A DNA stretch of 49,505 bases, from NCBI GenBank assembly GCA_030592635.1, contig JAUVIS010000002.1, positions 1 through 49,505 on the forward strand. The letters are read 5' to 3'. The notes below the pieces were generated by a model, which saw only the letters and a list, made by a program, of their open reading frames with translations, had not been told where the DNA came from and searched no databases. This DNA comes from Candidatus Fermentibacteraceae bacterium (GTDB lineage: Bacteria > Fermentibacterota > Fermentibacteria > Fermentibacterales > JCC-6). Positions 11,027 to 29,847 of the stretch are shown one piece after another. The number at the start of each line of letters is the position of its first letter. The first letter of the stretch is position 1. A program made the position numbers and the translations under genes.

Positions 11027-12007
11027 ATGCATTGCATCATTCCCGCCGCCGGCAGAGGAACAAGAATGCGACCGCTTACATGGTCAATCCCGAAACCCCT
11101 CATTCCTGTTGCCGGACGACCTGTACTGGCCCATGTAATAGATTCGCTGCTGGAAGCGGATGTGGATCATATAACGCTTATTGTGGGCTATCTCGGGGAT
11201 TCTATTGTCTCATGGGCCAGGACTGCTTATCCGGATATCAAAGTTGATTTCGCCATACAGGAGAAGCCTGACGGTCTCGCGTCAGCGGTTCTTCTGGCAG
11301 AACAGTATGTGAACGATGGCTCGCTGATGATTGTTCTCGGAGACACGCTTTTCTCAGCGGATTTGTCAGTTCTTAAAGGCGAAACCAGAAATATGATTGT
11401 AACCTCTCCGGTGGAAGATCCTTCAAGATTCGGTGTGGTTGTTATGGAGGGCAGCGGAGTAGTGGAACTCGTGGAAAAGCCATCTGAATTCATAAGCAAT
11501 CTCGCTATTGTGGGCGTTTACTATTTTGCAAGTGGCAGAAAGCTCATGGAGTACTGTAAGGAACTGAAGAAAAAGGACATAAAAACCAGAGGAGAGTATC
11601 AGCTTACAGACGCCATGCAACTCATGCTCAAGAACGGAGAGCCCTTCGGAATTCTGGATATTGACGGGTGGTACGACTGCGGGAAACCGGAAACCCTTCT
11701 TGAGACCAACAGAGAGCTTCTGGACAGAAACGGTAGCTCCGGTTCTCCCGTACTCGAGAACTCGGTAGTTATTGATCCGTGTTTTTTCAGCGAAGGAACA
11801 GTTATCAGGAATTCTGTTGTTGGCCCCTGGTTTTCCGGCGGAACCGGCGTTCTTATTGAGAATTCCAGAATAAGCAACACCATCGCGGGGGCAGATTCCG
11901 AGTTTAAGCATGTGATGTTGACAGAGACGGTTACAGGGGAGAGGTCAATTGTGCACGGGTCTTTTTCGAAAATGTACACAGGTGACGATTCAGTTGCGGA
12001 GATATAA
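11027..12007 (+). CDS. Sugar-1-phosphate nucleotidyltransferase with C-terminal left-handed beta-helix
   Basis: The N-terminal motif is IIPAAGRGTRMRPLTWSIPKPLIPV. The C-terminal region has repetitive hexapeptide-like character. Confidence 0.8.
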   Translation: MHCIIPAAGRGTRMRPLTWSIPKPLIPVAGRPVLAHVIDSLLEADVDHITLIVGYLGDSIVSWARTAYPDIKVDFAIQEKPDGLASAVLLAEQYVNDGSLMIVLGDTLFSADLSVLKGETRNMIVTSPVEDPSRFGVVVMEGSGVVELVEKPSEFISNLAIVGVYYFASGRKLMEYCKELKKKDIKTRGEYQLTDAMQLMLKNGEPFGILDIDGWYDCGKPETLLETNRELLDRNGSSGSPVLENSVVIDPCFFSEGTVIRNSVVGPWFSGGTGVLIENSRISNTIAGADSEFKHVMLTETVTGERSIVHGSFSKMYTGDDSVAEI

Positions 12008-13016
12008 CAAACGAATAGCGCTGTACGCGTCTTCCTCTGCCAACCGCGGAGGAACCGGCGTTTACACCAGGAGATTAATCAACGGCTTCAAAGAAGCTGG
12101 AATCACTGAAGTTGTTCCTCTTTGCCCGGGGAGTTCAGGATTTGCGGGAAAGCTTGTTTCAGAGCATTTTTCCATTCCCCGGATTGTCAGAAGAGAAGGA
12201 TTTGACCTCCTTCATCTTCCAGCCTTTGGCGGAAGAGCAGCGGGGGGTGTGCCGTACGCGGTAACAGTGCATGACATGGCATTCATGGCCCGACCTGACT
12301 GGTTTCCCCCGCTCAGATCTCTGTACTACAGACTTCATTTTCCCGGAGTGGCTCAGGGAGCGTCTGTAATTATAGCGGACAGCGATTTTACAGTTTCCGA
12401 GATTAAAAAATATCTGGGACTTGATGCCTGTCGGGTTTATCTGTCAGCTCCGGAAAACAACGCTGATGAAATTCTTTTTCGAAGAACTTTTGGTATAGAA
12501 GGTGAGTACATTCTTTCAACCGGCACAATTGAACCAAGAAAAAATATTGCTGCTCTCCTCGCGGCATGGCCCTCCATTAAGCTGGTTCATCCAGAGTTGA
12601 CCCTTGTGGTGACCGGCAGATGGGGATGGGGAAGAAAAGAAACAAAACTTGCTCTGCTGAATACACCCGGGGTCAAATGGGTTGGTTCCATCGCGGGTAA
12701 TCAGCTTATGAGTGCCTTTGCCGGTGCCAGACTGCTGGTTTATCCTTCTCTCTACGAAGGGTTTGGTCTCCCACCTCTGGAATCTGCCGCTTCCGGCGTT
12801 CCCTTTGTAATCGGACCTGCTGAAACACTGCGGGAAATTTTCGGAAACTGTGCAGCGGCAATATCCGGAGAGACTGCTCCCTCAATTGCCCGGGCGGTTC
12901 TTGAAGCCCTTGACAAGCGATTCTGCTCCGTGGAACTCCGGGAATTCGCAGACCGGTTCAAGGATACAACAATGGCACAGAATACATACATTGCCTACGG
13001 AAAAGCCTTCTCATGA
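11994..13016 (+). CDS. Glycosyltransferase family 4 (GT-B fold)
   Basis: The C-terminal E-x7-E-type block is YPSLYEGFGLPPLESAASGVPFV. The track ORF starts at a TTG at 11949. The real start is more likely the GTG at 11982 or the TTG at 11994, near the stop of the preceding gene. The start is uncertain. Confidence 0.8.
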   Translation: MRRYNKRIALYASSSANRGGTGVYTRRLINGFKEAGITEVVPLCPGSSGFAGKLVSEHFSIPRIVRREGFDLLHLPAFGGRAAGGVPYAVTVHDMAFMARPDWFPPLRSLYYRLHFPGVAQGASVIIADSDFTVSEIKKYLGLDACRVYLSAPENNADEILFRRTFGIEGEYILSTGTIEPRKNIAALLAAWPSIKLVHPELTLVVTGRWGWGRKETKLALLNTPGVKWVGSIAGNQLMSAFAGARLLVYPSLYEGFGLPPLESAASGVPFVIGPAETLREIFGNCAAAISGETAPSIARAVLEALDKRFCSVELREFADRFKDTTMAQNTYIAYGKAFS

Positions 13017-14086
13017 AAGTCCTTCAGGTTTATAAGGATGTTTTTCCTGAAGTCCATGGCGGAATAGAAAGGTATATACACGATTTTTCACTGTTTCTGA
13101 GAAGCCGAGGGCATTCTGTGCAGATCATTGTTGCAGGAGGTGGCGACAGAGTGGTTGGAGGTGTGGAAGTTACCGGCGTTCCTTCGCCGGTGAGAATAAT
13201 GTCCAACCCCATTGCACCCGGCTACACCAGAGTTCTCGCAGAAACTGACGCGGATGTTATCCATTTTCATCTGCCGCTGCCCGCGGCTGTTCTTGGATGG
13301 GAGTTTATAAAGAGAAGCGGAAGAAAGCCATATATAGTTACCTACCACAGCGATATTGTCCGCCAGGCTTTCATGATGCCGATTTACGGACCCGTTCTGC
13401 GCAGATTCCTTCGCGGCGCGTCTAAAGTCATTGCCACATCGGAGAACTACATCCGCACTTCAACTTATCTCAGCGGATTGCAGAACTCGGAGGCAATTCC
13501 CATTGGAGTGGATCTTAAACGATTCAGACCTGACAGCGACGCGAAGAAAAGTTACTATCTTTTTGTTGGAAGGTTCAGGAAATACAAAGGCATATTTGTT
13601 CTTCTCGAAGCATGGAGAAAAATGTCTGATCCCCCGGATCTGATACTTGCCGGCGGCGGCGGGCTTGTTCGCAGGGTCAGAAAATTTGTGGAAACGCATA
13701 AGCTTCCGGTAACTGTTCTGACCGATGTTACCGATGATGAACTGATTAAGTTGTATCAGGGTGCCAGAGCTCTTATTCTTCCTTCGATACAGCGCAGTGA
13801 GGCTTTCGGTATGGTACAGGTTGAAGCAATGGCCTGCGGAACTGCTGTGATAAGCAGCGATCTGCCCACCGGCGTGTCGTGGGTGAACCGGCACAATGAA
13901 ACAGGTCTTCTATTTTCAACAGGAGACCCGTCAGCGCTCTGTAAAGCAGTGATTCAGCTTGAAGAATCAATTGAAACCGGAACAGAAATGTACTTGAAAG
14001 CAAGAAAGAGGGCAGAGGATTTTTTTGACAGCGCAACAGTATTCGCAAGAGTTGAAGAATGTCTGATACAGGCAACAGAGATCTGA
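13013..14086 (+). CDS. Glycosyltransferase family 4 (GT-B fold)
   Basis: The motif SEAFGMVQVEAMACGTAVISSDLPTGVSWVNRHNETGLLF is present. There is a 4-nt ATGA overlap with the preceding GT4 gene. Confidence 0.85.
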   Translation: MKVLQVYKDVFPEVHGGIERYIHDFSLFLRSRGHSVQIIVAGGGDRVVGGVEVTGVPSPVRIMSNPIAPGYTRVLAETDADVIHFHLPLPAAVLGWEFIKRSGRKPYIVTYHSDIVRQAFMMPIYGPVLRRFLRGASKVIATSENYIRTSTYLSGLQNSEAIPIGVDLKRFRPDSDAKKSYYLFVGRFRKYKGIFVLLEAWRKMSDPPDLILAGGGGLVRRVRKFVETHKLPVTVLTDVTDDELIKLYQGARALILPSIQRSEAFGMVQVEAMACGTAVISSDLPTGVSWVNRHNETGLLFSTGDPSALCKAVIQLEESIETGTEMYLKARKRAEDFFDSATVFARVEECLIQATEI

Positions 14087-14577
14087 CAATTCTGATCCTT
14101 ACCGCAACTGCTCTGGGGGTTGTGGACAGCCTTATTCCGAGGCCTGTACCATTCATGAAGCTTGGACTTGCCAATGTGGCGGCGGTAATTGCTGTTGTCA
14201 GATACGGTTTTCTGAAAACACTGGAGCTGAACCTTTTCAGGGCCTTCGCAGTAGCTCTGATTACGGGTCTGCTGGCCACGCCTTCTTTTCTTCTTTCCAT
14301 TTCCGGAGCGGCGGCAAGCGCGACAGCTATGGGCCTGCTCAGAAAATTGCAGCCGGACAGATTCTCCATGGCTGGACTTTCTGCGGCGGGAGCGGTAGCA
14401 TCACTGTGGGCGCAGCTTCTGGTGGCCAGTCTGATTCTTCCGGGACTTCCGCTGCAGAATATTGTATTGTTGCTAACTCTGTGGGGGGTAATTTCCGGCG
14501 TAGCGATTGGCCTGCTGGCGCAGAAAGCTATGGGAAGGAACCCCGATATTGAAGTATTGCGCAAAGCCGGGGGTTAA
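14059..14577 (+). CDS. Gx transporter family membrane protein (heptaprenyl diphosphate synthase component I-like family)
   Basis: The protein is polytopic. IPRPVPFMKLGLANVAAVIAV resembles the conserved first loop and helix of this family. The start is uncertain because it overlaps the GT4 gene by 28 nt. Confidence 0.6.
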   Translation: MSDTGNRDLTILILTATALGVVDSLIPRPVPFMKLGLANVAAVIAVVRYGFLKTLELNLFRAFAVALITGLLATPSFLLSISGAAASATAMGLLRKLQPDRFSMAGLSAAGAVASLWAQLLVASLILPGLPLQNIVLLLTLWGVISGVAIGLLAQKAMGRNPDIEVLRKAGG

Positions 14578-14607
14578 ATTAAGTTACAGAGGTGGAAAGG
14601 AAAACTA

Positions 14608-14880
14608 TTGTTACACGGCAGATCCACAGGTTTCTGGATTTTCATAGCCCTGGCGGGTATGATGACGGGTACTGTTTTCGGCGAGGCGGTTGGTGCAGTG
14701 CTGCCGGACAGTTCAGTGGCTCTCAGGCGGTTTTTCAGCGGAGGTGCCGAGTTTTCGGTTGGGCCAATAGGGTTTGATCTTTACATACTCAGGTTTCATC
14801 TGACTGAGATTGCTGTGAAGCTGAACATCATGACATTTGCCGGTCTTCTCGCAGTGGGTGTGCTTTACAAATGGTTCTGA
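14608..14880 (+). CDS. Small membrane protein, DUF4321-like
   Basis: The 90-aa ORF has two hydrophobic helices flanking a beta-rich core (FSVGPIGFDLYILRFHLTEIAVKLNI), like DUF4321 proteins. The start is TTG, preceded by GGAAAGGAAAA. Confidence 0.5.
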   Translation: MLHGRSTGFWIFIALAGMMTGTVFGEAVGAVLPDSSVALRRFFSGGAEFSVGPIGFDLYILRFHLTEIAVKLNIMTFAGLLAVGVLYKWF

Positions 14881-14893
14881 CCAAACGGGGGGT

Positions 14894-15097
14894 TTGATTT
14901 TGGGTCGAATTGGAACCACGGAACTTATTCTTATTCTCGTTGTGCTTCTTCTTCTTTTTGGAGCGAAAAGGATTCCTGATATCGCCAGATCCGTAGGGAA
15001 GTCCTTGAACCAGTTCAAGAGGGGTATGCGGGAGATTGATATCGATCCGGACGAAAATAAAACAGATGACGATAAAAAAGAGCAGAGCGAGGGGTGA
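14894..15097 (+). CDS. tatA: Twin-arginine translocase subunit TatA/E
   Basis: GRIGTTELILILVVLLLLFGAKRIPDIARSVGKSLNQFKRG is the canonical TatA TM-hinge-amphipathic helix. The start is probably the TTG at 14894 or 14900, after a G-rich RBS. The track ORF (14837) is over-extended. Confidence 0.8.
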   Translation: MILGRIGTTELILILVVLLLLFGAKRIPDIARSVGKSLNQFKRGMREIDIDPDENKTDDDKKEQSEG

Positions 15098-15103
15098 TTC
15101 TGT

Positions 15104-15706
15104 ATGGCAACTGTTAGCTACAGCGCAAAAGAGATTGACTGCAAGATTGTTTATGCAGGCCCCGGATTGTCCGGAAAAACCACGAATGTCAAGTACATTC
15201 ACGGCCAGGTAGCAACGGGTTCAAGGGGGAAACTGATTTCTCTGGCTGCCGGCAATGACAGAACTTTGTTTTTTGATTTTCTCCCTCTTGATTCGGGAGA
15301 GATTAACGGTTTCAAGATCCGCCTTCATCTTTACAGCGTACCGGGGCAGGCAATGTATTCCGACAGTCGCAGACTCATACTTCAGGGTGTTGATGGCATC
15401 GTATTCGTCGCTGACTCACAGGAATCAAGGATGGATGCCAACATCGCCAGTCTCAGAGACTTGAAGGAAAACCTCCGCGGCCAGAGAAGAAAAGGTGTCA
15501 GTCTGGTTTTGCAGTGTAACAAACGGGATCTTCATGACGCAATTCCTGTTCCGGAAATCGTTAGTCAACTTGGTTTGTCCCGTGTTGCGTGCCTGGAGGC
15601 CGTCGCGTCCGAAGGCAAGGGAGTATTTGAGACCTTGCGAAGGGTAAGTCGAATGGTAATCGGCAGGCTTCACAGACAATTCGAAATACTGGAAGGTAGA
15701 GCCTGA
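15104..15706 (+). CDS. mglA: MglA-type Ras-superfamily small GTPase (paralog 1)
   Basis: P-loop KIVYAGPGLSGKTTN, intrinsic Arg-finger context DRTLFFDFLP, switch II YSVPGQAMY, the block VDGIVFVADSQ and G4 NKRD are all present. The layout is near-identical to Myxococcus MglA. Confidence 0.85.
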   Translation: MATVSYSAKEIDCKIVYAGPGLSGKTTNVKYIHGQVATGSRGKLISLAAGNDRTLFFDFLPLDSGEINGFKIRLHLYSVPGQAMYSDSRRLILQGVDGIVFVADSQESRMDANIASLRDLKENLRGQRRKGVSLVLQCNKRDLHDAIPVPEIVSQLGLSRVACLEAVASEGKGVFETLRRVSRMVIGRLHRQFEILEGRA

Positions 15707-17100
15707 TGTCAGATTCTCTCGTTGATCTGCTGCTTGTAAGACTTGGAAGGGAAGAAGAAAAAAAGAAAGTTCTGAAGCTTCTGATAACCAGCCTTGACCT
15801 GTCAGTTACAGAGGCGGAGAATGCTGTCAGCAATTCCCCCTCGGTGATCAAAGAAGCTGTACCAATGAACGAAGCCAGAATTATTCAAAAGGATCTTTAC
15901 CCGTATATCGACCTGCTGCCAAGGCTTGAAGATGAAGCTGATATGATAGACGAGGAAGAAATAGAAGAAATTGAGGAGTTGTCCGAAGAGGAATTGTCCG
16001 AGGAGGAACTTCCCGAGGCAGACATAGAAGCTCAAACGGTTGTTGAGGAAGAGGATATTTCACAAACAGACAACGATGATGAATCGATTCTGATTACCTC
16101 AGCCAGTGAAGAGATTATTTCCACCTCAAGATGCCATATCTGCGGAAGAACCCCGACCGACGGCGAAAGACTCGCGCCATGCCGAACATGCAGCGAGCTT
16201 ACATGCAGGAACTGTTTTGACAGAGTTGCTCATGTATGCAGCCACTGCGCAAAAAGTGGGAAAACAGTTGAACGGGTGAACGAGGGAATGGGTACGGAAG
16301 CTGAGGAAGGTATTGAATTTGACACTGAAGATACAGGCAAAGACAACAAAGGGGGTGGATCATATCCTCTGAGGATCGCTGTCGCCCTTATTTTTGTCCT
16401 GATTCTGGCTGCTGTTTTCTACTTCACGGATCCCATGGATATTTTTTCCAGTAGTGAGTCTTCTGCTGTAGCAACTGATACCAGTACGCCCGACACAGTC
16501 GCCACAGACTCAATCGGAATTCCCGACACGACAGTGGTCGCGGAGATTGCGGTGGATACAACAGAAACCCCGCCGGATACCTTAAGTGTGGATGACGATC
16601 CTTTTGGCCTGCAGTTTATCGCTTTGCCGGAGAACTGCACTCCAGGTGAAAATCCTCAGCCCGTGAACTTTCACTTGACATCACCGCGAGGAGTTCATGC
16701 TGCTATTCCAGCGGAAGAGAGCGAAATTCTTTTCGGTCAACTGGAGGTAATCGCTTCTTCCATTCCTGTTACAGTGGATGATGGAGCTTTTCTGGTCTAC
16801 CACGATACCACGAGCGTACTGGTTCTGGTTCTTCTTCACCCCGAGGAAACAGAAGTCCGAATACGGCTTATGCGGGAAGTTGCCGCCTGGCTCATACCGA
16901 CTGAGATTGACCAGCTGATACTTATCTACAGAGAGAATCGCTATCAGGATGCTATTGTTTTCAGTCTCGTACAGGAGGCATTTCCGGATGTTGAGGGTGT
17001 TCTCAGTCCAAGGCAGTTCCAGAGTATTTTAAGTTACAGAGAGGATTGCTGGGAATCAATCAGCGGCCCGGTAACTCAGTGGCTTTCCTCTATGGAATAA
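15706..17100 (+). CDS. Single-pass membrane protein: L7/L12-CTD-like N-domain, acidic linker, 4xCxxC zinc module, TM helix, D/T-rich linker, C-terminal alpha/beta domain
   Basis: The ATG overlaps the mglA stop by 1 nt (TGATG). Residues ~5-70 fit the L7/L12 C-terminal-domain pattern. The four CxxC pairs are CHIC...CRTC...CRNC...CSHC at residues 143-181. The TM helix is at residues 220-240. Confidence 0.7.
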   Translation: MSDSLVDLLLVRLGREEEKKKVLKLLITSLDLSVTEAENAVSNSPSVIKEAVPMNEARIIQKDLYPYIDLLPRLEDEADMIDEEEIEEIEELSEEELSEEELPEADIEAQTVVEEEDISQTDNDDESILITSASEEIISTSRCHICGRTPTDGERLAPCRTCSELTCRNCFDRVAHVCSHCAKSGKTVERVNEGMGTEAEEGIEFDTEDTGKDNKGGGSYPLRIAVALIFVLILAAVFYFTDPMDIFSSSESSAVATDTSTPDTVATDSIGIPDTTVVAEIAVDTTETPPDTLSVDDDPFGLQFIALPENCTPGENPQPVNFHLTSPRGVHAAIPAEESEILFGQLEVIASSIPVTVDDGAFLVYHDTTSVLVLVLLHPEETEVRIRLMREVAAWLIPTEIDQLILIYRENRYQDAIVFSLVQEAFPDVEGVLSPRQFQSILSYREDCWESISGPVTQWLSSME

Positions 17101-17138
17101 TCACTTTTCAAATTCAGAAAAACGGGAGTTCTTTATCC

Positions 17139-19331
17139 ATGCCAGTAGATACGAAGAAAAAGCTTGTTGTTATAGAGTCTCCCGCGAAGGCCAGGAGTCT
17201 GAAAAACTATCTTGGAAAAGGCTGGGATGTTGTTGCCTCCTACGGCCATGTAAGAGATCTGCCTCTTAATCGTATCGGGGTTAACAGCGAAACACTTGAG
17301 CCGGCGTATACCGTGCTTCCCCAGAAAAGAGCTGCTGTAGCCAAACTCAGAAAAGTCGCCTCCGCCTACAAAGAGATTTACCTGGCGGCAGATCCTGATC
17401 GCGAAGGTGAGGCCATTTGCTGGCATATCTACAAACTGTTACAGGGCAAAGGTATAACCTTTAAACGAATCAGGTTCAACTCTATTACCAGGGACGCTGT
17501 CAGAGCTGCGTCCGCTGCTGCCGCGGAAATAGACATGGATCTTGTGGATGCCCAGCAGGCACGGCGGGTAATGGATCGTCTGGTTGGATACAAGATAAGC
17601 CCTTACCTGTGGCGAACTGTGGGCAAGGGGCTCAGCGCGGGAAGAGTGCAGACCGTCGCACTGAGACTTATTGTTGAGCGGGAACAGGCTATTGGAAGCT
17701 TTGTTCCGAAGGAATTCTGGCCGGTTACCGCTGATTTTGACCAGAACGGGTCTCTGTTTCAGGCGAAACTGTTCAGATATGAGGGAAAAAGAGCCGACGG
17801 AGACAGGCATTCTCCCGGTGACAAGGAAAAAGCAGACAACATCCTGGACAGGGTCAGAGAAGCTCAGTGGAATATCACTTCAGTGGATAAAAAAGAAAAA
17901 TCCAGGAAGCCTGTTCCCCCGTTTATTACCAGCTCTCTTCAAGTTGCCGCGTCCGCCAGGTTATCCATGCCGCCATCAGTTACCATGAGAATCGCGCAGG
18001 ATCTTTATGAAGGATTTGAGATTGACGGAGAAACCACCGGTCTTATTACCTATATGCGTACTGACTCGGTTCGCATTGAACCTCCGGCTATAGAAGAATG
18101 CCGTGCTTTCATTACAAAAAAATGGGGAACGGAAAAATTGTCTCCAAAGCCCAGAAGATACAGGGCGAGCGGTGGTGCCCAGGACGCTCATGAAGCTATC
18201 AGACCAACTGATGTCGAGCGTACACCGGAGCTTATGGCTCGAATTCTTGACCCCAGACACCTTAAACTGTATTCTATGATCTGGGAACGATTTGTGGCTA
18301 CTCAGATGGCTGACGCGGTTATTGCGGAAACTGTTGTACTTGTTTCGGGAGGGGACGCTGTATTTAAAGCTGCCGGGCAGAAGATAGTGAACCCCGGATT
18401 TTCCATAGTTGAACCGGCGCAGTTGAAGGTTACCGGTGAAATTCCTTCACTGTCTGAAGGCGATGTTGACCTGAAAAAAGTATCTGCGGAACAGAAATTC
18501 ACAAAACCGCTGCCAAGATACTCAGAAGCAGCTCTTGTCTCTGAAATGAAGAAGAAGGCAATCGGCAGACCCTCTACCTATGTGTCAATAATTGCCACTC
18601 TGAAAAAGCGCAGCTATGTAGAGCTCAAGGAGAAGAAACTGATTCCCACAGAAGTGGGAACGGTGACAACAGATCTTCTGATCCGTCTGTTTCCACATCT
18701 GTTTGATGTTGGATTTACAGCAGAAATGGAAGAACTGCTTGATCTTGTCGCATCGGGTAAAAAAACCTACAGGGAAGCGGTGACCCAGCTCTACACACCA
18801 CTCGCGGCATCTCTTGAGGAAGCCATGAGGCGTCTCCCGGAAATAAAAGCTTCAATGATTAAAGAAACCTCTGAGAAGTGCCCGGTGTGCGGGAAACCTC
18901 TTCTGGAAAAAATGAGCAAGTTCGGAAAGTTTCTTGCCTGCAGCGGCTTTCCCGGCTGCAGATATACCCGTCCCCTTGGAGAAGACACAGAGGCCGCCAG
19001 TTCCGATGTAAAATGTTCGGAGTGCGGTAAAAGTATGCTGCTCAAAAAGGGCAGGTACGGCAGGTATCTCAGCTGCTCTGACAGCGTCTGTTCCAATACA
19101 CAGCCGGTACCTGTTGGAGTGAAATGCCCTGTGGAAAAGTGTACAGGCGACCTGGTTGAAAGAAAGTCCAGGAAAAACAAGCTGTTCTATTCGTGCAGCA
19201 GGTATCCGGATTGCGATTTTGCCATGTGGAACAAACCGGTGGACAGAGAGTGCCCCCGGTGCGGTTTTCCCCTCCTTGAAGAGAGAAAGAAAGGGGTGTT
19301 CTGTCCCAGTTGCAGGAAGAAGATAGACTGA
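17139..19331 (+). CDS. topA: DNA topoisomerase I
   Basis: The Toprim N-terminus is KKLVVIESPAKARSL, with DPDREGEAI. The catalytic Tyr context is GLITYMRTDS. Four C-terminal C4 zinc ribbons are present. I chose the ATG at 17139, whereas the track ORF starts at 17046 inside the upstream gene. Confidence 0.92.
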   Translation: MPVDTKKKLVVIESPAKARSLKNYLGKGWDVVASYGHVRDLPLNRIGVNSETLEPAYTVLPQKRAAVAKLRKVASAYKEIYLAADPDREGEAICWHIYKLLQGKGITFKRIRFNSITRDAVRAASAAAAEIDMDLVDAQQARRVMDRLVGYKISPYLWRTVGKGLSAGRVQTVALRLIVEREQAIGSFVPKEFWPVTADFDQNGSLFQAKLFRYEGKRADGDRHSPGDKEKADNILDRVREAQWNITSVDKKEKSRKPVPPFITSSLQVAASARLSMPPSVTMRIAQDLYEGFEIDGETTGLITYMRTDSVRIEPPAIEECRAFITKKWGTEKLSPKPRRYRASGGAQDAHEAIRPTDVERTPELMARILDPRHLKLYSMIWERFVATQMADAVIAETVVLVSGGDAVFKAAGQKIVNPGFSIVEPAQLKVTGEIPSLSEGDVDLKKVSAEQKFTKPLPRYSEAALVSEMKKKAIGRPSTYVSIIATLKKRSYVELKEKKLIPTEVGTVTTDLLIRLFPHLFDVGFTAEMEELLDLVASGKKTYREAVTQLYTPLAASLEEAMRRLPEIKASMIKETSEKCPVCGKPLLEKMSKFGKFLACSGFPGCRYTRPLGEDTEAASSDVKCSECGKSMLLKKGRYGRYLSCSDSVCSNTQPVPVGVKCPVEKCTGDLVERKSRKNKLFYSCSRYPDCDFAMWNKPVDRECPRCGFPLLEERKKGVFCPSCRKKID

Positions 19332-20200
19332 TTCTGGAATCTTTCAGAGATGAGCTTCAATACGGCAGAGGTCTCTCTCCACTTACAGTAAAGGCGTACA
19401 TCGCCCAGATGGCTGATTTTATTCAGGAGGGGGGATCACTCGCTGAAGGGTTTGATGCCTCATCCATGCGTGAATACCTGATGGTACGGGCTTCCAGAAA
19501 TCTGTCACCGCGGACAATTGCCAGAATGGTCAGCTGCTTTCATACCTTTTCCAGCTGGCTTAAGGAAACAGGTCGTACTGATGTTGATCGCTCTCAGTTA
19601 CTTCAACCGCCGCGAATACCCCGCAGTCTTCCGGGCTTCCTTGGTGTCAGTGAAGTAAAGAGTGTTATGAATGTCTATGATATTTCCAGACCGAAAGGCA
19701 TCAGAGACCGCGCGGTTGTTGAACTTCTCTATGGTGCCGGGCTCAGAGCAGCGGAAGCGGCATCTCTTCTTCTGAAGAACACAAACATCGCCGCTGGAAC
19801 AGTCAAAGTTATGGGTAAAGGCAAGAGAGAGAGAATTGTTCCCCTTCCAGCAGGAACTACAGAATATTTAGATAAGTGGACGCATAGCCGTTTTCTTTTT
19901 GCAGCAGATGAGGATCCGGGTACTTTGTTCATCAGTGTCCGAGGGCGAAAGCTTGACCCGAGAGATATACGGCGTATTGTTTCCGCAGGCGTAGCGAGGG
20001 CAGCAAGGGCGGCAGGAGCCACACCCCACACCTTCAGGCACAGTTTTGCCACCCACCTTCTGAACGCGGGAGCTGACATAAGAACCGTTCAGGAACTGCT
20101 TGGCCATGCCGGGATTGGGACAACACAGATATACACACACCTGACAACGGAAAAATTGAAAGGTATTTACATGAAGTCACACCCCAGGGGGAAAAAGTGA
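19310..20200 (+). CDS. xerC: Site-specific tyrosine recombinase XerC/XerD family
   Basis: The N-terminal SAM-like domain contains GLSPLTVKAYI. Catalytic blocks are GLRAAEAASL, HTFRHSFATHLL and LGHAGIGTTQIYTH. Confidence 0.88.
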   Translation: MQEEDRLILESFRDELQYGRGLSPLTVKAYIAQMADFIQEGGSLAEGFDASSMREYLMVRASRNLSPRTIARMVSCFHTFSSWLKETGRTDVDRSQLLQPPRIPRSLPGFLGVSEVKSVMNVYDISRPKGIRDRAVVELLYGAGLRAAEAASLLLKNTNIAAGTVKVMGKGKRERIVPLPAGTTEYLDKWTHSRFLFAADEDPGTLFISVRGRKLDPRDIRRIVSAGVARAARAAGATPHTFRHSFATHLLNAGADIRTVQELLGHAGIGTTQIYTHLTTEKLKGIYMKSHPRGKK

Positions 20201-23139
20201 AGATTAAAGGTGCATTCACCACTGACAGGATTGTCGCAACAGCCGCAGCTCTGGCTGCCTTTATAGTTTATGTCATTACTCTCGCACCTTCTGTCAGCTT
20301 CTGGGACAGCGGTGAATACATTACATGCTCGTGGGTCGCCGGTGTTCCGCATCCGCCGGGTGTTCCGTTTTTTGTGCTCCTTGGAAGGGTCAGCACCATC
20401 ATATTCGGCTTTATCCCTTCCATAGCCGCAAGGGTAAATCTGATGTGCGCCATTGCGGGAACTGTTACAATCGGTCTTGTCGCGAGACTGATACAGAGGT
20501 GGAGTATCAGGCTCAAGTATGAACCCTGGCTCTACAGGCCAGTCTCTGCCGCGGGAGCACTCATGGCAGCCTTCAGCTACACGGTCTGGCGGAACAACAA
20601 CGCCACCGAGACCTATGCCATGGCTGGTCTTCTTTCCCTTCTTATTCTCTGGGTTTTTGATCTGTGGCTTGAGAGAAGATTGCACGGGAAGCCTGCAGGC
20701 AGACAATTGCTTCTTACCGGGTATCTTATGACCCTTGCTGTCGGCAATCATCTCAGTGCTCTTATTGTCACCTTTCCCATTATTGCGATGTATGTTCTTT
20801 ACGCATTCAGGAAAAAAGCATTTGAATGGAAATCTCCCGGTTTTATCGTGATGTTTGCGGGGCTGATGGTTCTGGCTTTCAGCATTCACCTTTACATGCC
20901 TCTCAGGGCCATACAGAACCCTGAGATCAACGAAACCAATCCATCGGTGTGGACTGAGTTCAAAGAGGCCATTGAAAGAAAGCAGTACGGTCAGGTATCC
21001 ATATTCAACAGAAAGGGACCATTTCAGGATCAGCTGGGACTGTACGCGGAATATCTCTCCTGGCAGGTGGGAAGACCTGAGGCATGGACTGGGGCCATGG
21101 GTACACCCGGCGGAGTTATCTGGGCTTTTCTCTGGATGGGTACTGCTGTTCTTGCCGCTACCGGTTTTGCGGTTATCGGCAAAAGACGACCGGATCTGCT
21201 CCTTCTGGTTGGGCTGTCATTTATCATGGCCAGTCTGGCCTTTGTGGTCTATCTGAATTTCAAGACCGGCCCGGAGGGCACGACACTGGGGGAGGTCAGG
21301 GAAAGAGATTATTTTTTCGGTGCCTCGTTCATCTTTTTCGCAGTGCTTTCCATGACAGGGCTGGGTTCTCTGTTTGCTTCGGCAAAAAGCAGACTTCTTA
21401 AAAACGCGGCCTGGTCCATGCTGCTCTTCCCGATGATTTCACTCGGTATGAACTGGCATCATTGCGACAGGTCGGGTGACTATGTCGCGAGAGACTATGG
21501 CATCAATCTGCTGGAATCATGTCCGGAAAACGCTGTGCTGATAACAAACGGCGACAATGATACTTTCCCCCTGTGGTTTGCGCAGGGAGTTCTAGGTGTA
21601 AGAAGGGATGTTATCATCTCCAACCTCAGTCTTATGAACACAAGATGGTATGTGAAGCAGCTTATGCTTAAAGACCCTGATCTGCTGAGTTATCCGGATT
21701 ATGTTGTGGAAAACATGCAGCCTGTCTTTATCTGGGGACCCAACTTTTTTCATGTATCTTCCGACGGATTACCCGAAACTTCACAGACAGACAGGCAGGC
21801 ACTTGATGCCACTTTCAACAGACAGTGGCCCTGGGCGCTTACCGAAGGATCAATCAGCATTCCTGTACCCGCCATGGGAAAAGGCAGCCAGGGATCTGTT
21901 CCAATGCAGGATCTTCTCCTGATAAACATGATTCGGAATAAACCTGTTCACGGAAGAGATATAATGATAGCCGGGACCGTTTCCGGAGAGAACAGAAGAT
22001 ATGTGGAGGACTATCTTCAAATGCAAGGCATCGCCTTTCGGGTAATGGACAGTCCTGTTCGCCAGCTCGTAAACACTGAGCTTGGATGGGTTATCGCGGA
22101 GCAGTTCCTTACAACAGGTCTCAACGACCCCGGTGTTTACAAAGATGACCAGGCTATACAGATTGCAAGAAATTATGTCAGTTCATATAACAGACTGGCC
22201 TACCAGTATATGGCGGAGGGAAACGCTGAAATGGTACAGATCTGCCTTGATCGGGCGGAAGCGGTGTTTTCAGCCATGCCTGAAGAATGGCTGTCAATAA
22301 TGCCGAACTTTATCCTTCTGGAGGCCAGATTCATCCACGGATATCAGGGTGCTGACGCTGCCATTTACTACATGGCTGAAGCAAGCTCCCGCATGAACAG
22401 TATGGCGGTTCTCTACGGAGATCAGAATGCTGTTGTTGCGGCATCACGGCTTGGTACCATTGCCCGCGAATTTGAGCAGGAAGCGGCTTTTAACGCGGTG
22501 ATCGATTTCATAAGTGATGGTACCCCGGCTCAGGAATGGATCCGTATTGAGAAAGATTTATCCTTCGGGAATTTCATTGTCGCAAGAAGAAATATTGTTG
22601 AACTCCGGGCTGAGTGGGGAGCGGAGTATCAGCCGGTTCTGGATCTTATGGAAGAAACTGTTGACAGGTTCACCATTTACAGTTCCGTAAACAGCGGGTT
22701 GAGCATGACTGACACTGCTCTTGCTTCTGTTTTTTCACACACCGACCAGACAAGCGCTTCTCTGGAATGGACCGATGATATTTCAACAGCATCCATTGTT
22801 GTTGAGATGGTGGGTCTTGCCTCCAGAGGAGGCATTATGTCTGCTGTTTCCCTGGGTACCGTAATGGCGTCAGTTATTGATTCCGAACTTGAAGCACAAG
22901 TACTGACAAACCTGTGTGCCGCTTTTGTCGCGGATCCTCAGGGAGCAGAGGAGCTTTCCCTCTGGTTCATCCTTTCCACGGGAACATTTTCACCGGAGGC
23001 CAGAGCAGTTAATCTAGCGGACGGTGGATTCGCGGAACTCAGCTACGCCATTCTGGTTAACGATCTTGGGATTGCCCCGGAGAACGCGATGACACTCAGT
23101 CTTTCAGGGCAGCGCCTGGCTGCACTGCTGGAGGAGTAA
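20197..23139 (+). CDS. DUF2723-family (glycosyltransferase family 117-like, GT-C type) polytopic membrane protein with large C-terminal helical domain
   Basis: The N-terminal signature is SVSFWDSGEYITCSWVAGVPHPPGVPFF. There are more than 10 predicted TM helices followed by a ~500-aa soluble region. The GTG start overlaps the xerC stop (GTGA), and the stop overlaps the hslV ATG (TAATG). Confidence 0.8.
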   Translation: MKIKGAFTTDRIVATAAALAAFIVYVITLAPSVSFWDSGEYITCSWVAGVPHPPGVPFFVLLGRVSTIIFGFIPSIAARVNLMCAIAGTVTIGLVARLIQRWSIRLKYEPWLYRPVSAAGALMAAFSYTVWRNNNATETYAMAGLLSLLILWVFDLWLERRLHGKPAGRQLLLTGYLMTLAVGNHLSALIVTFPIIAMYVLYAFRKKAFEWKSPGFIVMFAGLMVLAFSIHLYMPLRAIQNPEINETNPSVWTEFKEAIERKQYGQVSIFNRKGPFQDQLGLYAEYLSWQVGRPEAWTGAMGTPGGVIWAFLWMGTAVLAATGFAVIGKRRPDLLLLVGLSFIMASLAFVVYLNFKTGPEGTTLGEVRERDYFFGASFIFFAVLSMTGLGSLFASAKSRLLKNAAWSMLLFPMISLGMNWHHCDRSGDYVARDYGINLLESCPENAVLITNGDNDTFPLWFAQGVLGVRRDVIISNLSLMNTRWYVKQLMLKDPDLLSYPDYVVENMQPVFIWGPNFFHVSSDGLPETSQTDRQALDATFNRQWPWALTEGSISIPVPAMGKGSQGSVPMQDLLLINMIRNKPVHGRDIMIAGTVSGENRRYVEDYLQMQGIAFRVMDSPVRQLVNTELGWVIAEQFLTTGLNDPGVYKDDQAIQIARNYVSSYNRLAYQYMAEGNAEMVQICLDRAEAVFSAMPEEWLSIMPNFILLEARFIHGYQGADAAIYYMAEASSRMNSMAVLYGDQNAVVAASRLGTIAREFEQEAAFNAVIDFISDGTPAQEWIRIEKDLSFGNFIVARRNIVELRAEWGAEYQPVLDLMEETVDRFTIYSSVNSGLSMTDTALASVFSHTDQTSASLEWTDDISTASIVVEMVGLASRGGIMSAVSLGTVMASVIDSELEAQVLTNLCAAFVADPQGAEELSLWFILSTGTFSPEARAVNLADGGFAELSYAILVNDLGIAPENAMTLSLSGQRLAALLEE

Positions 23140-25020: not shown

Positions 25021-25599
25021 ATGCACAGATCGGGTAACGAGGTTGCTTACAAGATAGTTTACTACGGTCCTGGTCTTTCGGGGAAAACAACCAACCTGAG
25101 GGGCATCCGGGACATTATCGCACCGGAAAACAGGGGCAGGCTTGTAACCCTCTGCACAAGATGCGAGAGAACTGTATTCTTTGATTTTCTCCCGGTAAAT
25201 TTTGCCAGAATCGGAGATATGCGGGTTAAGCTTCATCTCTATTCTGTTCCGGGACAAGCGTATTACGCTCTGAGCCGAAGGGTGATACTTGACGGCATTG
25301 ACGGAGTGGTTTTCGTTGCCGACAGCCAGAAGGAAAGGTCTGAAGCAAACCTCAGTACCATTGATGACCTTGAACACAATTTGAAGAGTTACGGTCTTGA
25401 CATGTCAATGATTCCCATGGTTCTCCAGTTCAACAAGAGGGATCTTCCCGGAATAATGTCAACCGGTAAAATGAATACCGATCTGAACAAATTCGGCTGG
25501 CCTACTGTGGAATCAGTAGCCATTGGCGGAAGTGGTCCCGCCGAGACGCTCAAGATCATTGCCACGCAGATCGCCAAGCGCCATGCGCGCACAGGCTGA
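25021..25599 (+). CDS. mglA: MglA-type Ras-superfamily small GTPase (paralog 2)
   Basis: KIVYYGPGLSGKTTN, ERTVFFDFLP, YSVPGQAYY, IDGVVFVADSQ and NKRD are present. An RBS, GGGGGAGGG, lies directly upstream. Confidence 0.85.
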   Translation: MHRSGNEVAYKIVYYGPGLSGKTTNLRGIRDIIAPENRGRLVTLCTRCERTVFFDFLPVNFARIGDMRVKLHLYSVPGQAYYALSRRVILDGIDGVVFVADSQKERSEANLSTIDDLEHNLKSYGLDMSMIPMVLQFNKRDLPGIMSTGKMNTDLNKFGWPTVESVAIGGSGPAETLKIIATQIAKRHARTG

Positions 25600-27724
25600 T
25601 TCTAAAAATCAATTTAATATTATTGTCCTTCTGCTGCTTCTTGTAGCAGGAGGCTTTGCTTTCCGTACAGTTTTCGCCCGGTCAGTAATGCGACCTCCTT
25701 CCAGAATGCAGGGGGAAACCACTCAGGCATACCGGTATGCCCGGATGGTTTCAGACGGGGAGGGAATACCCGAGGTTGACACTCTGGTTATGCGTCCGAA
25801 CGGTATGATCACGGCAGAGAACTCTGTTTTTGAAGAGTACATTGCCGGGGGGATACACAGAGTGGTCGGCGGAGATTTTAACAGGTTTCTGTTGCTGTTC
25901 TGCCGTATATTTCCTCTGCTCGTACTGCCGGTAATTTTCTTCTGGATGCGCAATTCGGGTTTTTCAATGCCGGAGTCTTCCGCCGGCGCCGGATTGTATG
26001 CTGTCTTCCTTCCTGCTCTGCTGCGAACCAGAGGGGAGAGCCTGTATCGCGAAACTGTAGCGCTGCCTCTTATTACACTGACTCTTGCGCTTGCGGATAT
26101 GGGAATTCGAAGCGAGAGAAAAAACACTCTCAAATTCTCAATCGCAGCAGCCGTAACCTTTTTTATGGCTCTCGCGTCCTGGAAGGTTACAGGCTTTATC
26201 TCTTTCTTCATATTCACATGGCTGGCTTTCCGGAAGCCGGGCCTTCGCACAGTCCTTCCTCTGGCTGTGAGTCAACTGGCTGCCGCAACCCTTCTTACTC
26301 ACATGCGTCACGATATGGCTCTGCTTTCTCCCGGTACTATTATGGCAGTCGCGGCAGTTGCTTCCTCATTCTTTAACCACAAAGTTTTCCCATGGGCAGG
26401 GCTTATGGTTTCTCTTGCCTCAGGCGTATTTTTCAGCTCCTCCTCCAGTGGCCATGTAGCTTCCGTAATTGCGGCGAAGCTTAAATTTTTCTTCAGCCAT
26501 CCCGAGGATCCCGCGCTGCTGTCCGGCGATGCCCGTCTTTTCTGGGTAAGCGGATACACCAGTCCGTCCGTCGGGCAGATTATTCTGCTTTTCGGTGCAG
26601 CCGCTGTTATTGCCGTATGGGGATGGAAACCATTAAGAGAAAAGACTCGCGGATCAGCCATGCTTTTTCTTGCACCTCTTTCCGCCGCCGGATACCTTTT
26701 CTTTGACAGACTTCATGTGCTTCTGGCCATCGGTATTATTCCAGCGGTTATAGCTGCCCTGCGAGGCCGCAGGTGGATGCTTCCGGTTCTGCTGACGGTC
26801 TTTGGTCTTCAGTCAATGTTTGCGCCTCAACTTGCGACCCTGCTTTCATCCACGGGTCTTTCATTTGGTGATTCTTCCTCACTTCTCAAAGATTCCGAGC
26901 TTGACGATTTTGTTGACTGGGCAGAGGAAAATCCGGGAACTATGCTTTCCTTCTGGCACATTTCAGGATTGCTCTCCGCTTACGCTGAAATGCCGGTTGT
27001 CACTCACACCTTCTTTGAAAATACAGAAAACCGTGAAACCATTATTGAGTTCGCCGAAAGAATCTACGGCACAGAAGATGAAATGGTTGATTTCATGGAA
27101 GAGAAGAGAGCCATATATCTGGCTTACCAGGCTGATTTCACCTTCGACAGAACACCTCAGGGACTTCTTTACCTTGCGGCGCTCACAGAGATTCCCGACG
27201 GTTGTCTCGCGATAAGGCTTCACTACTATCCCCATTCTCTTGAAAGGCTGAAACTGATATGGCAGGGGCCATCCATCAGAGTATTCCAGCTTGATGGAGA
27301 CACAGCTGATACGCGAAGACAACTACTCTGGGAAACCCGGTACGGCTCTTTCCTGCACAACAGGGAGATGGCGGGTGCCGTGATTAACTCTCCTGTTGAA
27401 ACCGGTATTTATCTTGCCGATCAGGGAATCAGCAACAGTGATCCGCAAAAAATATCCGCTGCTCTGCTGATCTTTTCGCTGTCCCGGAACGATGTGCCGG
27501 CAGACGCCGCCGTCACTCTTCTTCAGGAGCTTCTTATGGCTCATCTTGCGGGAGAGTATTCAATTGAGTATCTGGAAGAAGACTTTGTCGCTTATCTTGA
27601 CGGCTGGGGACCGGATCCTCAGCTCCGCTTCGATCTTGTCAGACTGTTGAGAAACAATGACCTTGATCAAAGGGCGGATTTCCACATGGAGATAATTGAA
27701 AGGATGGGAAGAAACGGTTTATGA
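25583..27724 (+). CDS. Large polytopic membrane protein with C-terminal soluble domain (GT-C / STT3-like architecture, family not recognised)
   Basis: There are about 11-13 hydrophobic helices followed by a ~300-aa soluble part. The first loop, YRYARMVSDGEGIPEVD...RPNG, and the post-TM segment SFWHISG loosely recall STT3 EL1 and WWDYG, but the WWDYG Asp is not conserved. The ATG at 25583 overlaps mglA-2 by 17 nt. Confidence 0.65.
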   Translation: MRAQADSKNQFNIIVLLLLLVAGGFAFRTVFARSVMRPPSRMQGETTQAYRYARMVSDGEGIPEVDTLVMRPNGMITAENSVFEEYIAGGIHRVVGGDFNRFLLLFCRIFPLLVLPVIFFWMRNSGFSMPESSAGAGLYAVFLPALLRTRGESLYRETVALPLITLTLALADMGIRSERKNTLKFSIAAAVTFFMALASWKVTGFISFFIFTWLAFRKPGLRTVLPLAVSQLAAATLLTHMRHDMALLSPGTIMAVAAVASSFFNHKVFPWAGLMVSLASGVFFSSSSSGHVASVIAAKLKFFFSHPEDPALLSGDARLFWVSGYTSPSVGQIILLFGAAAVIAVWGWKPLREKTRGSAMLFLAPLSAAGYLFFDRLHVLLAIGIIPAVIAALRGRRWMLPVLLTVFGLQSMFAPQLATLLSSTGLSFGDSSSLLKDSELDDFVDWAEENPGTMLSFWHISGLLSAYAEMPVVTHTFFENTENRETIIEFAERIYGTEDEMVDFMEEKRAIYLAYQADFTFDRTPQGLLYLAALTEIPDGCLAIRLHYYPHSLERLKLIWQGPSIRVFQLDGDTADTRRQLLWETRYGSFLHNREMAGAVINSPVETGIYLADQGISNSDPQKISAALLIFSLSRNDVPADAAVTLLQELLMAHLAGEYSIEYLEEDFVAYLDGWGPDPQLRFDLVRLLRNNDLDQRADFHMEIIERMGRNGL

Positions 27725-28621: not shown

Positions 28622-29221
28622 ATGATATTTCTGATTCTTTTGTTATCAGCTGACGCACCGACAAACATTCAATGTATGTGGATGTTACGGGCGGGAAGTC
28701 AAACAGCAACTATCCAGGCAGTGATGGGTTCGTCTCTGTATTCCAGAGCCTGTACGGCTTCCGCGAACGAGTTCTCCCGTGATAATCTTCTCGACGGAAT
28801 TAAAGGTGGCGACATATCCATGATCGTTCCCCTTGCGGCTCTTCTTGTCTCAGAGGGCAGGGCTGATCTGGCGGAAGTCTACTGGGAGATGGAAGGACGG
28901 GATCTGCCTGTCACCCGGAATGATCTTCTTGACGTGCTTTCGTGGTTCGGGCGATACGAACTTTATCCGATAATGGCACTCAATCCCACAGTCCCTTCTG
29001 ACATGGAAGGAACAATGCACTCAGATCAATGCGGCGCTGTTTGTGCTCTCGGATGGATGACCGTAAGGGAAGACGGTCTGTTTCACTGTGAGGAACTTGT
29101 TTCACCGGCGGATATTCAGATACTCTCAGGATTCTTCCCCGGTGTTAATTCTGAAATGAAATATATTCCATCCGGATTTCTTGACAGTATGCTCAAGACG
29201 ACAACTCGAGTTACACGATGA
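28622..29221 (+). CDS. Hypothetical protein (hydrophobic N-terminus)
   Basis: The track ORF (28553) overlaps the tRNA. The first ATG after the tRNA is at 28622 (MIFLILLLSA). There is an ATGA overlap with the downstream gene. I recognised no family. Confidence 0.45.
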   Translation: MIFLILLLSADAPTNIQCMWMLRAGSQTATIQAVMGSSLYSRACTASANEFSRDNLLDGIKGGDISMIVPLAALLVSEGRADLAEVYWEMEGRDLPVTRNDLLDVLSWFGRYELYPIMALNPTVPSDMEGTMHSDQCGAVCALGWMTVREDGLFHCEELVSPADIQILSGFFPGVNSEMKYIPSGFLDSMLKTTTRVTR

Positions 29222-29847
29222 ACCTCAACGAACCTCAGCAGAAACATCTGGAACAGTTGTCCCGTGGCATCGCAATGATTAAACGGTCTCAGGAGCAGCT
29301 CCCGATAGTGCCGGCCCTTGTATCCTGGGTTCGTATCATTCTCCTTCCCTTCTGCCTCTGGACCGGCTGGAACTCCGATTACACCGCTATGTTCTGGCTG
29401 TGCATTGTCGCCGCCTCAAGTGACTATTTCGATGGATTGATTGCCAGAAAAATGAAGAAGTCCAGTACTCCGGGGAAAACGCTGGATATTCTGGCGGACA
29501 AACTCTTCCTTTCTGTCATGCTGATATTTCTTGCAAGACTGGGGGCTGTTACCGGGCTGCTCGCCATGATTCCCGCATGGTATCACATCACTGTTGTTCT
29601 GGGGCTGCTTGTGGTGTCATGGAGTATCAAAATTCCTGTGGTTGCCATAACCACAAGCGAAAGGCTTACAATTATTCTCAGTTATGTTCTGGTGCTTACC
29701 GCCGCCGGTACTCTGGCATATCCGGACAAAAGTATTTTCTTCAAACTTACATGGGTTGCTCAAATACTCACACCGATAGCTGCCGTCTTCGGTGTAATCA
29801 GCTACTTCAGATTCTCCAGAAGACTGATACAGAAGTATATGCAATGA
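29218..29847 (+). CDS. CDP-alcohol phosphatidyltransferase family protein
   Basis: The signature D-x2-D-G-x2-A-R...G-x3-D-x3-D is present as SDYFDGLIARKMKKSSTPGKTLDILADKL. The protein is polytopic. Confidence 0.8.
   Translation: MNLNEPQQKHLEQLSRGIAMIKRSQEQLPIVPALVSWVRIILLPFCLWTGWNSDYTAMFWLCIVAASSDYFDGLIARKMKKSSTPGKTLDILADKLFLSVMLIFLARLGAVTGLLAMIPAWYHITVVLGLLVVSWSIKIPVVAITTSERLTIILSYVLVLTAAGTLAYPDKSIFFKLTWVAQILTPIAAVFGVISYFRFSRRLIQKYMQ

Follow-up and report, generated by a model that had tools for sequence, protein, structure and literature searches.

Results and Discussion

The DNA stretch analysed here, positions 1 to 49,505 of contig JAUVIS010000002.1 (assembly GCA_030592635.1) from a Candidatus Fermentibacteraceae bacterium, is referred to below as the window. 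On its forward strand it carries two overlapping genes. The first, mglA-1 (15104..15706), codes for a 200-amino acid (aa) small GTPase of the MglA family. The second (15706..17100), annotated as 'hypothetical', codes for a bitopic protein of the inner membrane with 464 aa; it belongs to a family restricted to Fermentibacteria, and we call it the partner. Both its sequence and its predicted fold identify the N-terminal head of the partner as truly homologous to the C-terminal domain (CTD) that the ribosomal protein bL12 (L7/L12) carries, and this head is joined to a zinc module, a single transmembrane helix and a periplasmic domain. This architecture is real and undescribed; literature searches retrieved no publication joining MglA and Fermentibacteria, and none relevant to the PF00542/L12-like domain of the partner. 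Taken together, the analysis makes the protein a plausible MglA partner and a candidate regulator. We tentatively infer, with a probability of about 0.4, that it serves as a membrane-tethered receptor or regulator of MglA-1 in place of the missing MglB.

The current view is that MglA, the Ras-like switch studied best in bacteria, depends for its regulation on GTPase-activating proteins (GAPs) of the Roadblock type and on the RomR/RomX exchange factor. The pair described here is thus a candidate, open to direct testing, for a novel type of small-GTPase regulator or membrane receptor and, if the proposed role is true, a rare case in which a ribosomal GTPase-recruiting domain has been reused outside the ribosome. 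The soluble parts of both proteins are small enough for heterologous expression, so binding and GTPase assays could be run despite the lack of cultured members of the phylum.

The partner begins with a homologue of the bL12 C-terminal domain

In the ribosomal stalk, the bL12 CTD serves to recruit EF-Tu, EF-G, IF2 and RF3. The corresponding head of the partner spans residues 5–73 (15718..15924, forward strand), adopts a beta-alpha-alpha-beta-alpha-beta order in the AlphaFold2 model and is predicted to be cytoplasmic. When the whole partner was compared with Pfam, PF00542 matched residues 16–64 with 23.6 bits (E = 6.3e-5), under the gathering cut-off of 25.9 bits; with residues 1–76 or 1–80 in isolation the match rose over this cut-off (27.6–27.7 bits, E = 3.3–3.8e-6). 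The same profile matched the N-domains of 11 out of 17 family members (E ≤ 0.01), the best of them with E = 5.4e-7. Searching the PDB with the profile of the family resulted in eight matches, seven of which were to bL12 chains, albeit these were weak (best E = 0.1), and alignment of this profile to E. coli bL12 with hhalign gave an E-value of 7e-5 and a probability of 63%.

The structural comparison points in the same direction. The head is modelled with a predicted local distance difference test (pLDDT) score of about 89–97, and in Foldseek searches bL12 CTDs ranked first (probability 1.0), with ClpS structures second. Aligned to 1ctf, the domain and full-length models yielded template modelling (TM) scores of 0.70/0.77–0.80 and root-mean-square deviations of 1.7–1.9 Å over 68 columns with 25% identity. 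In the viral library BFVD the top match of the partner model was phage RplL. An earlier examination of the stretch, made from its letters and open reading frames (ORFs) without database searches (hereafter the sequence-only reading), had noticed by eye that residues ~5–70 resemble the L7/L12 CTD and had proposed a search of residues 1–80 against PF00542; the resemblance is borne out by both the significant Pfam score of the isolated domain and the Foldseek ranking.

Judging from its domain content, the partner is not a ribosomal protein, because the N-terminal dimerisation and L10-binding domain of bL12 is absent, the head starting as early as residue 5 in a membrane protein of 464 aa, and because the NCBIfam model TIGR00855 matched through its positions 65–115 only and far under its cut-off (19 versus 84 bits). 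HMMER and hhalign place the two proteins in an ungapped register, in which partner residue n corresponds to residue n+46 of E. coli bL12. In this register the family retains the bL12 core residues V68, V72, A83, V87, P91, V98 and L110, together with K65 and E82. The head also possesses invariant positions of its own, namely the VD.LLVR motif of beta1, R58 and Q61 of alpha3, and the YP.xDLLPR motif of beta3.

Anatomy of the partner downstream of the head

The anatomy of the partner was derived from an alignment of 113 family sequences and from AlphaFold2 models and is established with high confidence; all coordinates refer to the forward strand. The head is followed by an acidic disordered tether (residues 74–129, 15925..16092), the length of which varies widely among homologues and which shows a pairwise identity of 17% and pLDDT values below 50 at residues 77–127. 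A SEEEL-SEEEL repeat (residues 91–102, 15976-16011) lies within it. Residues 130–186 (16093..16263) comprise a conserved ITSASEE helix and the zinc module, in which eight cysteines arranged in four CxxC pairs (143/146, 159/162, 167/170 and 178/181) as well as H144 and H176 are invariant in all 113 sequences. A single transmembrane helix was modelled at residues 220–241 (16363..16428), with the hydrophobic stretch at 222–240. The ~223 aa C-terminal to it consist of a variable, disordered linker rich in S, T, D and P (residues 242–294, 16429..16587; pLDDT below 50 at 251–284) and of a globular periplasmic domain (residues 295–464, 16588..17097), which is modelled with pLDDT values of 93–98 and carries the invariant residues H378, R385 and E410. 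A cytoplasmic location is predicted for the head and the zinc finger, and a periplasmic one for the C-terminal domain (N-in/C-out), since the 15 residues preceding the helix contain on average across the family 2.6 lysines and arginines, compared with 0.3 following it, and since the cysteine-rich module lies on the N-terminal side. The E-rich SEEEL linker, the four CxxC pairs, the single transmembrane helix and the extracytoplasmic part of ~220 aa that had been described in the sequence-only reading were each located as described, and the placement of the C-terminal segment outside the cytoplasm agrees with the charge distribution.

The zinc module matches several Pfam families under their cut-offs (E = 6e-4 or weaker): FYVE in 17, the ANCHR B-box in 15 and Prok-RING_2 in 13 of 18 members. 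Through these weak matches it appears to resemble the binuclear treble-clef fingers of the RING/FYVE/B-box kind. The best PDB match of a profile of residues 142–186 (16129..16263) was to bL28 of Thermotoga maritima (2jz6, E = 0.003), where RCEVCGKAPRSGN aligns against RCHICGRTPTDGE, with a second weak stretch at the last CxxC. Kinship with bL28 was considered and rejected: the resemblance is confined to a short CxxCG knuckle, and as the Pfam family Ribosomal_L28 is matched by no member, the likeness is probably one of zinc-knuckle motifs. Unrelated proteins (P0140–P0160; for example locus L066, 4001..5278) with beta-helix, FGE-sulfatase, Sel1 or TPR regions contain the eight-cysteine pattern (KxxRCHxCG...CPxC...TCxxCFD...CxxC) as well, behind N-terminal double zinc ribbons (DZR). 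The module thus seems to represent a mobile zinc-finger domain that has no name as yet.

For the periplasmic domain neither Pfam nor a PDB sequence search revealed relatives. Foldseek returned weak matches with high root-mean-square deviations to PD-(D/E)xK nucleases (Rai1/DXO, MGME1, lambda exonuclease and Cas4-like proteins). Although these agree between the two libraries searched (PDB and BFVD), they are too poor for the domain to be assigned to the nucleases. Mean pairwise identity within the family amounts to 66% for the N-domain, 70% for the zinc module and 35% for the periplasmic domain, so that the last is, in terms of sequence identity, the faster-evolving part of the partner.

MglA-1 belongs to a distinct group of MglA proteins

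By homology, the product of 15104..15706 is a genuine MglA GTPase. In a phmmer search of the PDB, residues 1–190 matched Thermus thermophilus MglA (3t12_A) with E = 2.8e-64 and Myxococcus xanthus MglA with E = 8e-61. The motifs GPGLSGKTT, DRTLFFDFLP (with R53/T54), VPGQ (Q82) and NKRD are invariant in a five-sequence alignment including M. xanthus MglA, and these catalytic motifs predict a hydrolysis-competent enzyme. Identity to canonical MglAs is 53–58%. Identity is 72–96% for Fermentibacteria orthologues of MglA-1 and at most 60% for every other MglA in a database of 5.8 billion proteins. Given at least 72% identity inside the phylum versus at most 60% outside it, the orthologues form a separate MglA clade. 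Three features set this clade apart from canonical MglAs and span the group from Sabulitectum to Aegiribacteria: an alanine at residue 18 beside the P-loop (VYAGPGL instead of VYYGPGL; Y18A), a basic loop at residues 125–133 (RGQRRKG) that is two residues shorter, and a C-terminal extension of ~10 residues (RLHRQF...; residues 189–200) that canonical MglAs do not have.

The stop codon of mglA-1 (TGA, 15704-15706) and the start codon of the partner gene (ATG, 15706-15708) form a TGATG junction (15703..15708, forward strand; GCCTGATG), in which a single A is common to both genes. The gene directly 5' of mglA-1 codes for TatA and the one directly 3' of the partner gene for TopA; DUF4321, HepPP_synt_I and XerC are further near neighbours, and a Roadblock gene is absent among them. 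No MglB-like ORF was found among the ORFs of at least 70 aa in the 49.5-kb window, including by comparison with M. xanthus MglB, a query whose sequence identity was verified and which was also used for the C-terminal domain of the partner. Each of the three nearest non-Fermentibacteria MglAs looked up has a Roadblock (mglB) gene 12–20 nucleotides (nt) upstream, and the position that mglB holds in the canonical operon is occupied by the TatA gene in Fermentibacteria. Canonical mglB-mglA coupling, typical of the family without being obligatory, was recorded for 390 of the 449 MglAs surveyed in 2014 (PMC4316618). Three claims of the sequence-only reading concerned this locus, and all of them hold: the complete MglA motif set, which aligns with that of M. 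xanthus MglA; the 464-aa ORF starting inside the mglA stop codon; and the absence of an adjacent MglB/Roadblock gene.

Distribution of the partner and its association with mglA-1

A protein search yielded 133 homologues of the partner, and every named one comes from Fermentibacteria; by these named sequences the window belongs to Candidatus Fermentibacteria (Hyd24-12), near Ca. Sabulitectum. Almost all are annotated as 'hypothetical', the exceptions being one FYVE zinc-finger protein and one YlaI. When one genome was scanned for each GTDB species, 61 partner loci came up, none of them named as another phylum, and a profile run against 1.84 billion representatives detected no relative of full length beyond the partner family. 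One 121-aa sequence (P0136) combines a eukaryote-like EGF/Cys-rich segment with a stretch near-identical to partner residues 29–69; with near certainty this is a chimera produced by assembly and not a real relative.

In ~60 species the partner gene directly follows mglA-1, and the partner was found downstream of both MglA-1 orthologues that had been picked independently of it. The sequence-only reading had called for a survey of relatives, and the two genes are indeed adjacent in almost all Fermentibacteria loci examined. In order to describe the junctions, the 61 fetched loci and the window itself were counted together (n = 62). The 1-nt TGATG/TAATG overlap seen in the window is present in 33 of them and a 4-nt ATGA overlap in two, while the genes are separated by 1–2 nt in 24, giving an overlap or a gap of this size at 59 of the 62 junctions. 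At one further locus (L035, 3400..3998; Ca. Sabulitectum silens MJAN01000006.1) mglA-1 is apparently frameshifted near its 3' end, which could be an assembly error or reflect a pseudogene.

Does the partner act on MglA-1?

According to the favoured explanation, the partner would be dedicated to MglA-1: acting as a receptor, as an effector or as a substitute for the absent MglB-type regulator, it would capture the GTPase at the inner membrane or regulate it there. Its architecture mirrors the logic of the ribosomal stalk, with a mobile bL12-CTD on a flexible hinge of ~55 residues and the membrane as the platform, and the periplasmic domain would couple MglA-1 to an envelope structure or signal. 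Docking would involve beta1 (VD.LLVR), beta3 (YP.xDLLPR) and R58 and Q61 of helix 3 instead of the helix-4 face used by bL12. The context may be the control of type IV pili or of cell polarity, which is plausible because Fermentibacteria (Hyd24-12) are rods that lack flagellar genes and possess type IV pilus genes (PMC5030696).

Several lines of evidence support the link. MglA-1 is a true MglA with all catalytic motifs and forms a clade with features of its own. The head is homologous to the bL12 CTD, whose known role is to recruit G domains while mounted on a flexible tether, a geometry that recurs in the partner. The two genes overlap or stand 1–2 nt apart at 59 of the 62 junctions, and the TatA gene takes the place that mglB has in the nearest outside MglAs. 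The family of the partner occurs nowhere but in the phylum with the MglA-1 clade. In addition, the predicted cytoplasmic head and zinc finger are more constrained than the periplasmic domain, as judged by sequence identity, which fits the binding of a strongly conserved protein in the cytoplasm, such as MglA-1, itself the most conserved gene of the collinear block in which the pair resides.

A number of observations weigh against a dedicated role. The first set concerns the head. Helix-4 residues V66, I69, K70 and R73 of bL12 reportedly contact EF-Tu and EF-G, as described by Kothe in 2004 and Diaconu in 2005, both cited in PMC5770553. In the partner family the equivalents of the first three (positions 20, 23 and 24) show the highest entropies of helix 1, at 2.3–2.5 bits, and vary more than the rest of the domain, and the equivalent of R73 (position 27) is I, V or M. 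With these positions variable and the invariants of the family lying elsewhere, the GTPase-binding surface of bL12 is not retained, and any docking would have to use a new surface. Of the 'GTPase-docking domain' proposed in the sequence-only reading, the homology to the bL12 CTD stands; the docking role was an extrapolation from that homology, which the variability of the contact positions does not favour.

The second set concerns the locus. The whole block GT4-HepPP_synt_I-DUF4321-TatA-MglA-partner-TopA-XerC is collinear at every locus, more than 60 in all. Short start/stop overlaps of 1–4 nt occur in ~10 other same-strand ORF pairs of the window, including XerC/TMEM260-like and TMEM260-like/HslV. 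At two of the 62 junctions mglA-1 and the partner gene are separated by 85 nt. Finally, at locus L052 (CAYRQP010000008.1, 3607..5581) the partner gene comes straight after the TatA gene, mglA-1 being cleanly missing from an otherwise intact block, and most of the invariant residues of the N-domain and zinc module are intact in this partner. As the whole block is collinear and short overlaps are common in the window, synteny and translational coupling do not single out the mglA-1/partner pair. Therefore, the pair is overlapping and adjacent, as had been claimed, yet its translational coupling confers no special status on it; likewise, the arrangement is undescribed, but a regulator or effector is not singled out by its genomic context.

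The observations on the bL12 contact positions, the collinear block, the short overlaps and L052 also speak for an explanation in which the two genes are neighbours by inheritance only. The partner would then be an envelope scaffold or signal transducer, the head and zinc finger of which bind some other ligand in the cytoplasm, and MglA-1 would act independently of it, under regulators with genes at other sites. We consider this main rival somewhat unlikely. The family is confined to a phylum with a distinct MglA clade and without an adjacent mglB; the junction of 0–2 nt persists where the identity of the partner falls to ~30%; and, to our knowledge, the only known biochemical role of the bL12 CTD, to which the head is homologous, is the binding of G domains (Kothe 2004 and Diaconu 2005, cited in PMC5770553). 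Should the partner be functionally unrelated to MglA-1, it would still represent an undescribed phylum-specific membrane family with an unusual combination of domains, although this would be a more ordinary finding.

The explanation that the partner is a membrane receptor or regulator of MglA-1 may also be stated in a more specific form, in which a bL12-derived domain has been taken over to serve a polarity GTPase as a GAP, a guanine nucleotide exchange factor (GEF) or an anchor at the membrane, replacing the near-universal MglB and linking the cycling of MglA to the periplasmic domain. In this full form it is doubtful and, in our view, unlikely.

Alternatively, the head might be a mimic of the ribosomal stalk that binds EF-Tu, EF-G, IF2 or the stalk base and tethers factors or ribosomes to the membrane, in a manner unrelated to MglA. 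Its homology to the bL12 CTD in both sequence and fold, the conservation of the equivalents of K65, E82, A83, V87 and P91, and the weak top match of the zinc module to a ribosomal protein, bL28, are in line with such a function. It is nevertheless improbable, considering that the equivalents of V66, I69 and K70 are the most variable ones and that of R73 is substituted, that the N-terminal domain of bL12 is lacking, and that the bL28 match amounts to a zinc knuckle in a family unmatched by Ribosomal_L28.

Another possibility is that the head is a ClpS-like or another peptide-binding adaptor that would act, together with a RING/B-box-like treble-clef finger, in the processing or degradation of membrane proteins. 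Prokaryotic B-box, AN1 and LIM fingers have a proposed role in membrane-associated protein processing or degradation, most members show the weak B-box, FYVE and Prok-RING matches, and ClpS structures constitute the second Foldseek group for the head (TM scores of 0.6–0.7). However, there is no Pfam match to ClpS, identity of the head to ClpS is 9–14% versus 20–28% to bL12, the zinc-finger matches all lie under the Pfam cut-offs, and neither a peptidase nor a Clp gene adjoins the mglA-1/partner pair, which renders this reading improbable.

The possibility that the C-terminal domain (residues 295–464) is a divergent MglB/Roadblock GAP domain, a likeness loosely suggested in the sequence-only reading, has in its favour a similar secondary-structure order (alpha-beta-beta-alpha-beta-beta) as the sole point and is next to untenable: Robl_LC7 (PF03259), with which the sequence-only reading had proposed to compare residues 300–464, matched none of 20 members at E-values up to 10; no MglB or Roadblock chain was retrieved by the PDB profile search or is among the best 50 Foldseek matches listed per library (PDB, BFVD); phmmer detected no similarity to M. 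xanthus MglB; and the predicted periplasmic location would keep the domain away from MglA.

Comparison with known systems

The MglA/MglB polarity module of M. xanthus and T. thermophilus corresponds to group 1 of the MglA family as defined by Wuichet and Søgaard-Andersen 2014 (PMC4316618). MglA-1 resembles the MglAs of this module in overall sequence as well as in keeping the intrinsic Arg, the catalytic Gln and NKRD. Unlike in the module, the neighbour of MglA-1 is a membrane protein with unrelated domains and not a coupled Roadblock GAP gene. Orphan MglAs, such as Bdellovibrio MglA and SofG of M. xanthus, are described as functionally important (PMC4316618). MglA-1 is like them in being without an adjacent MglB. 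The known partners of Bdellovibrio MglA are a TPR protein and RomR, and neither of the two orphans is known to have a conserved membrane partner that abuts it translationally and carries a bL12-like domain.

With ribosomal bL12 the partner shares not only a homologous fold and sequence but also the general layout of a small mobile domain anchored on a large platform by a long, flexible linker. It differs from bL12 in that the CTD-like domain is N-terminal, so that the domain order is reversed, and in that the platform is the membrane and not the ribosome. Furthermore, the dimerisation/L10-binding domain is missing, the helix-4 factor residues are not conserved and new invariants have arisen in beta1, beta3 and alpha3.

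Reuse of the bL12 CTD outside the ribosomal protein is reportedly also seen in proteins of crAss-like phages. In this respect the partner is comparable to phage RplL and to proteins with tandem bL12-CTD repeats. Unlike the partner, these non-ribosomal and viral copies keep the canonical bL12 motif and are not membrane proteins, and a link between them and small GTPases is not known to us. Three metagenomic proteins of 268–1066 aa (P0155, P0156 and P0161) contain from three to at least five tandem canonical copies of the bL12 CTD and represent non-ribosomal arrays of this domain.

A further parallel is offered by the Rup GTPases. Genes for group 1 Rup proteins adjoin a gene for a protein that has a conserved domain at its N-terminus, a single helix in the inner membrane and a periplasmic domain at its C-terminus (PMC4316618). 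As in the locus described here, a gene for a small Ras-like GTPase stands beside one for a bitopic inner-membrane protein. The GTPase family is, however, different; the N-domain of the Rup neighbour is uncharacterised and not reported to be bL12-like; and its periplasmic domain is peptidoglycan-binding, unlike that of the partner.

Other features of the window and related loci

The collinear block can be followed beyond the eight genes named above. In the window (11027..23139) and at loci L001–L071 the order is NTP-transferase-GT4-GT4-HepPP_synt_I-DUF4321-TatA-MglA-partner-TopA-XerC-TMEM260-like. It is kept across the phylum at protein identities of 30–96%, which is an unusually stable order for genes so mixed in function.

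The window contains a second MglA paralogue (25021..25599) of 192 aa that is 45% identical to MglA-1 and located directly after hslV-hslU. Its 3' end is overlapped by a gene (25583..27724) for a polytopic membrane protein of ~710 aa without a Pfam match. Consequently, both MglA paralogues of the window are without an adjacent mglB and have a membrane protein gene next downstream. In the loci of the nearest non-Fermentibacteria relatives (L067 and L069; 2678..4741) recR is followed by a small unknown ORF, then mglB, mglA and CDP-alcohol phosphatidyltransferase. A CDP-alcohol phosphatidyltransferase gene is present in the window too (29218..29847), ~3.6 kb downstream of the paralogue at 25021..25599.

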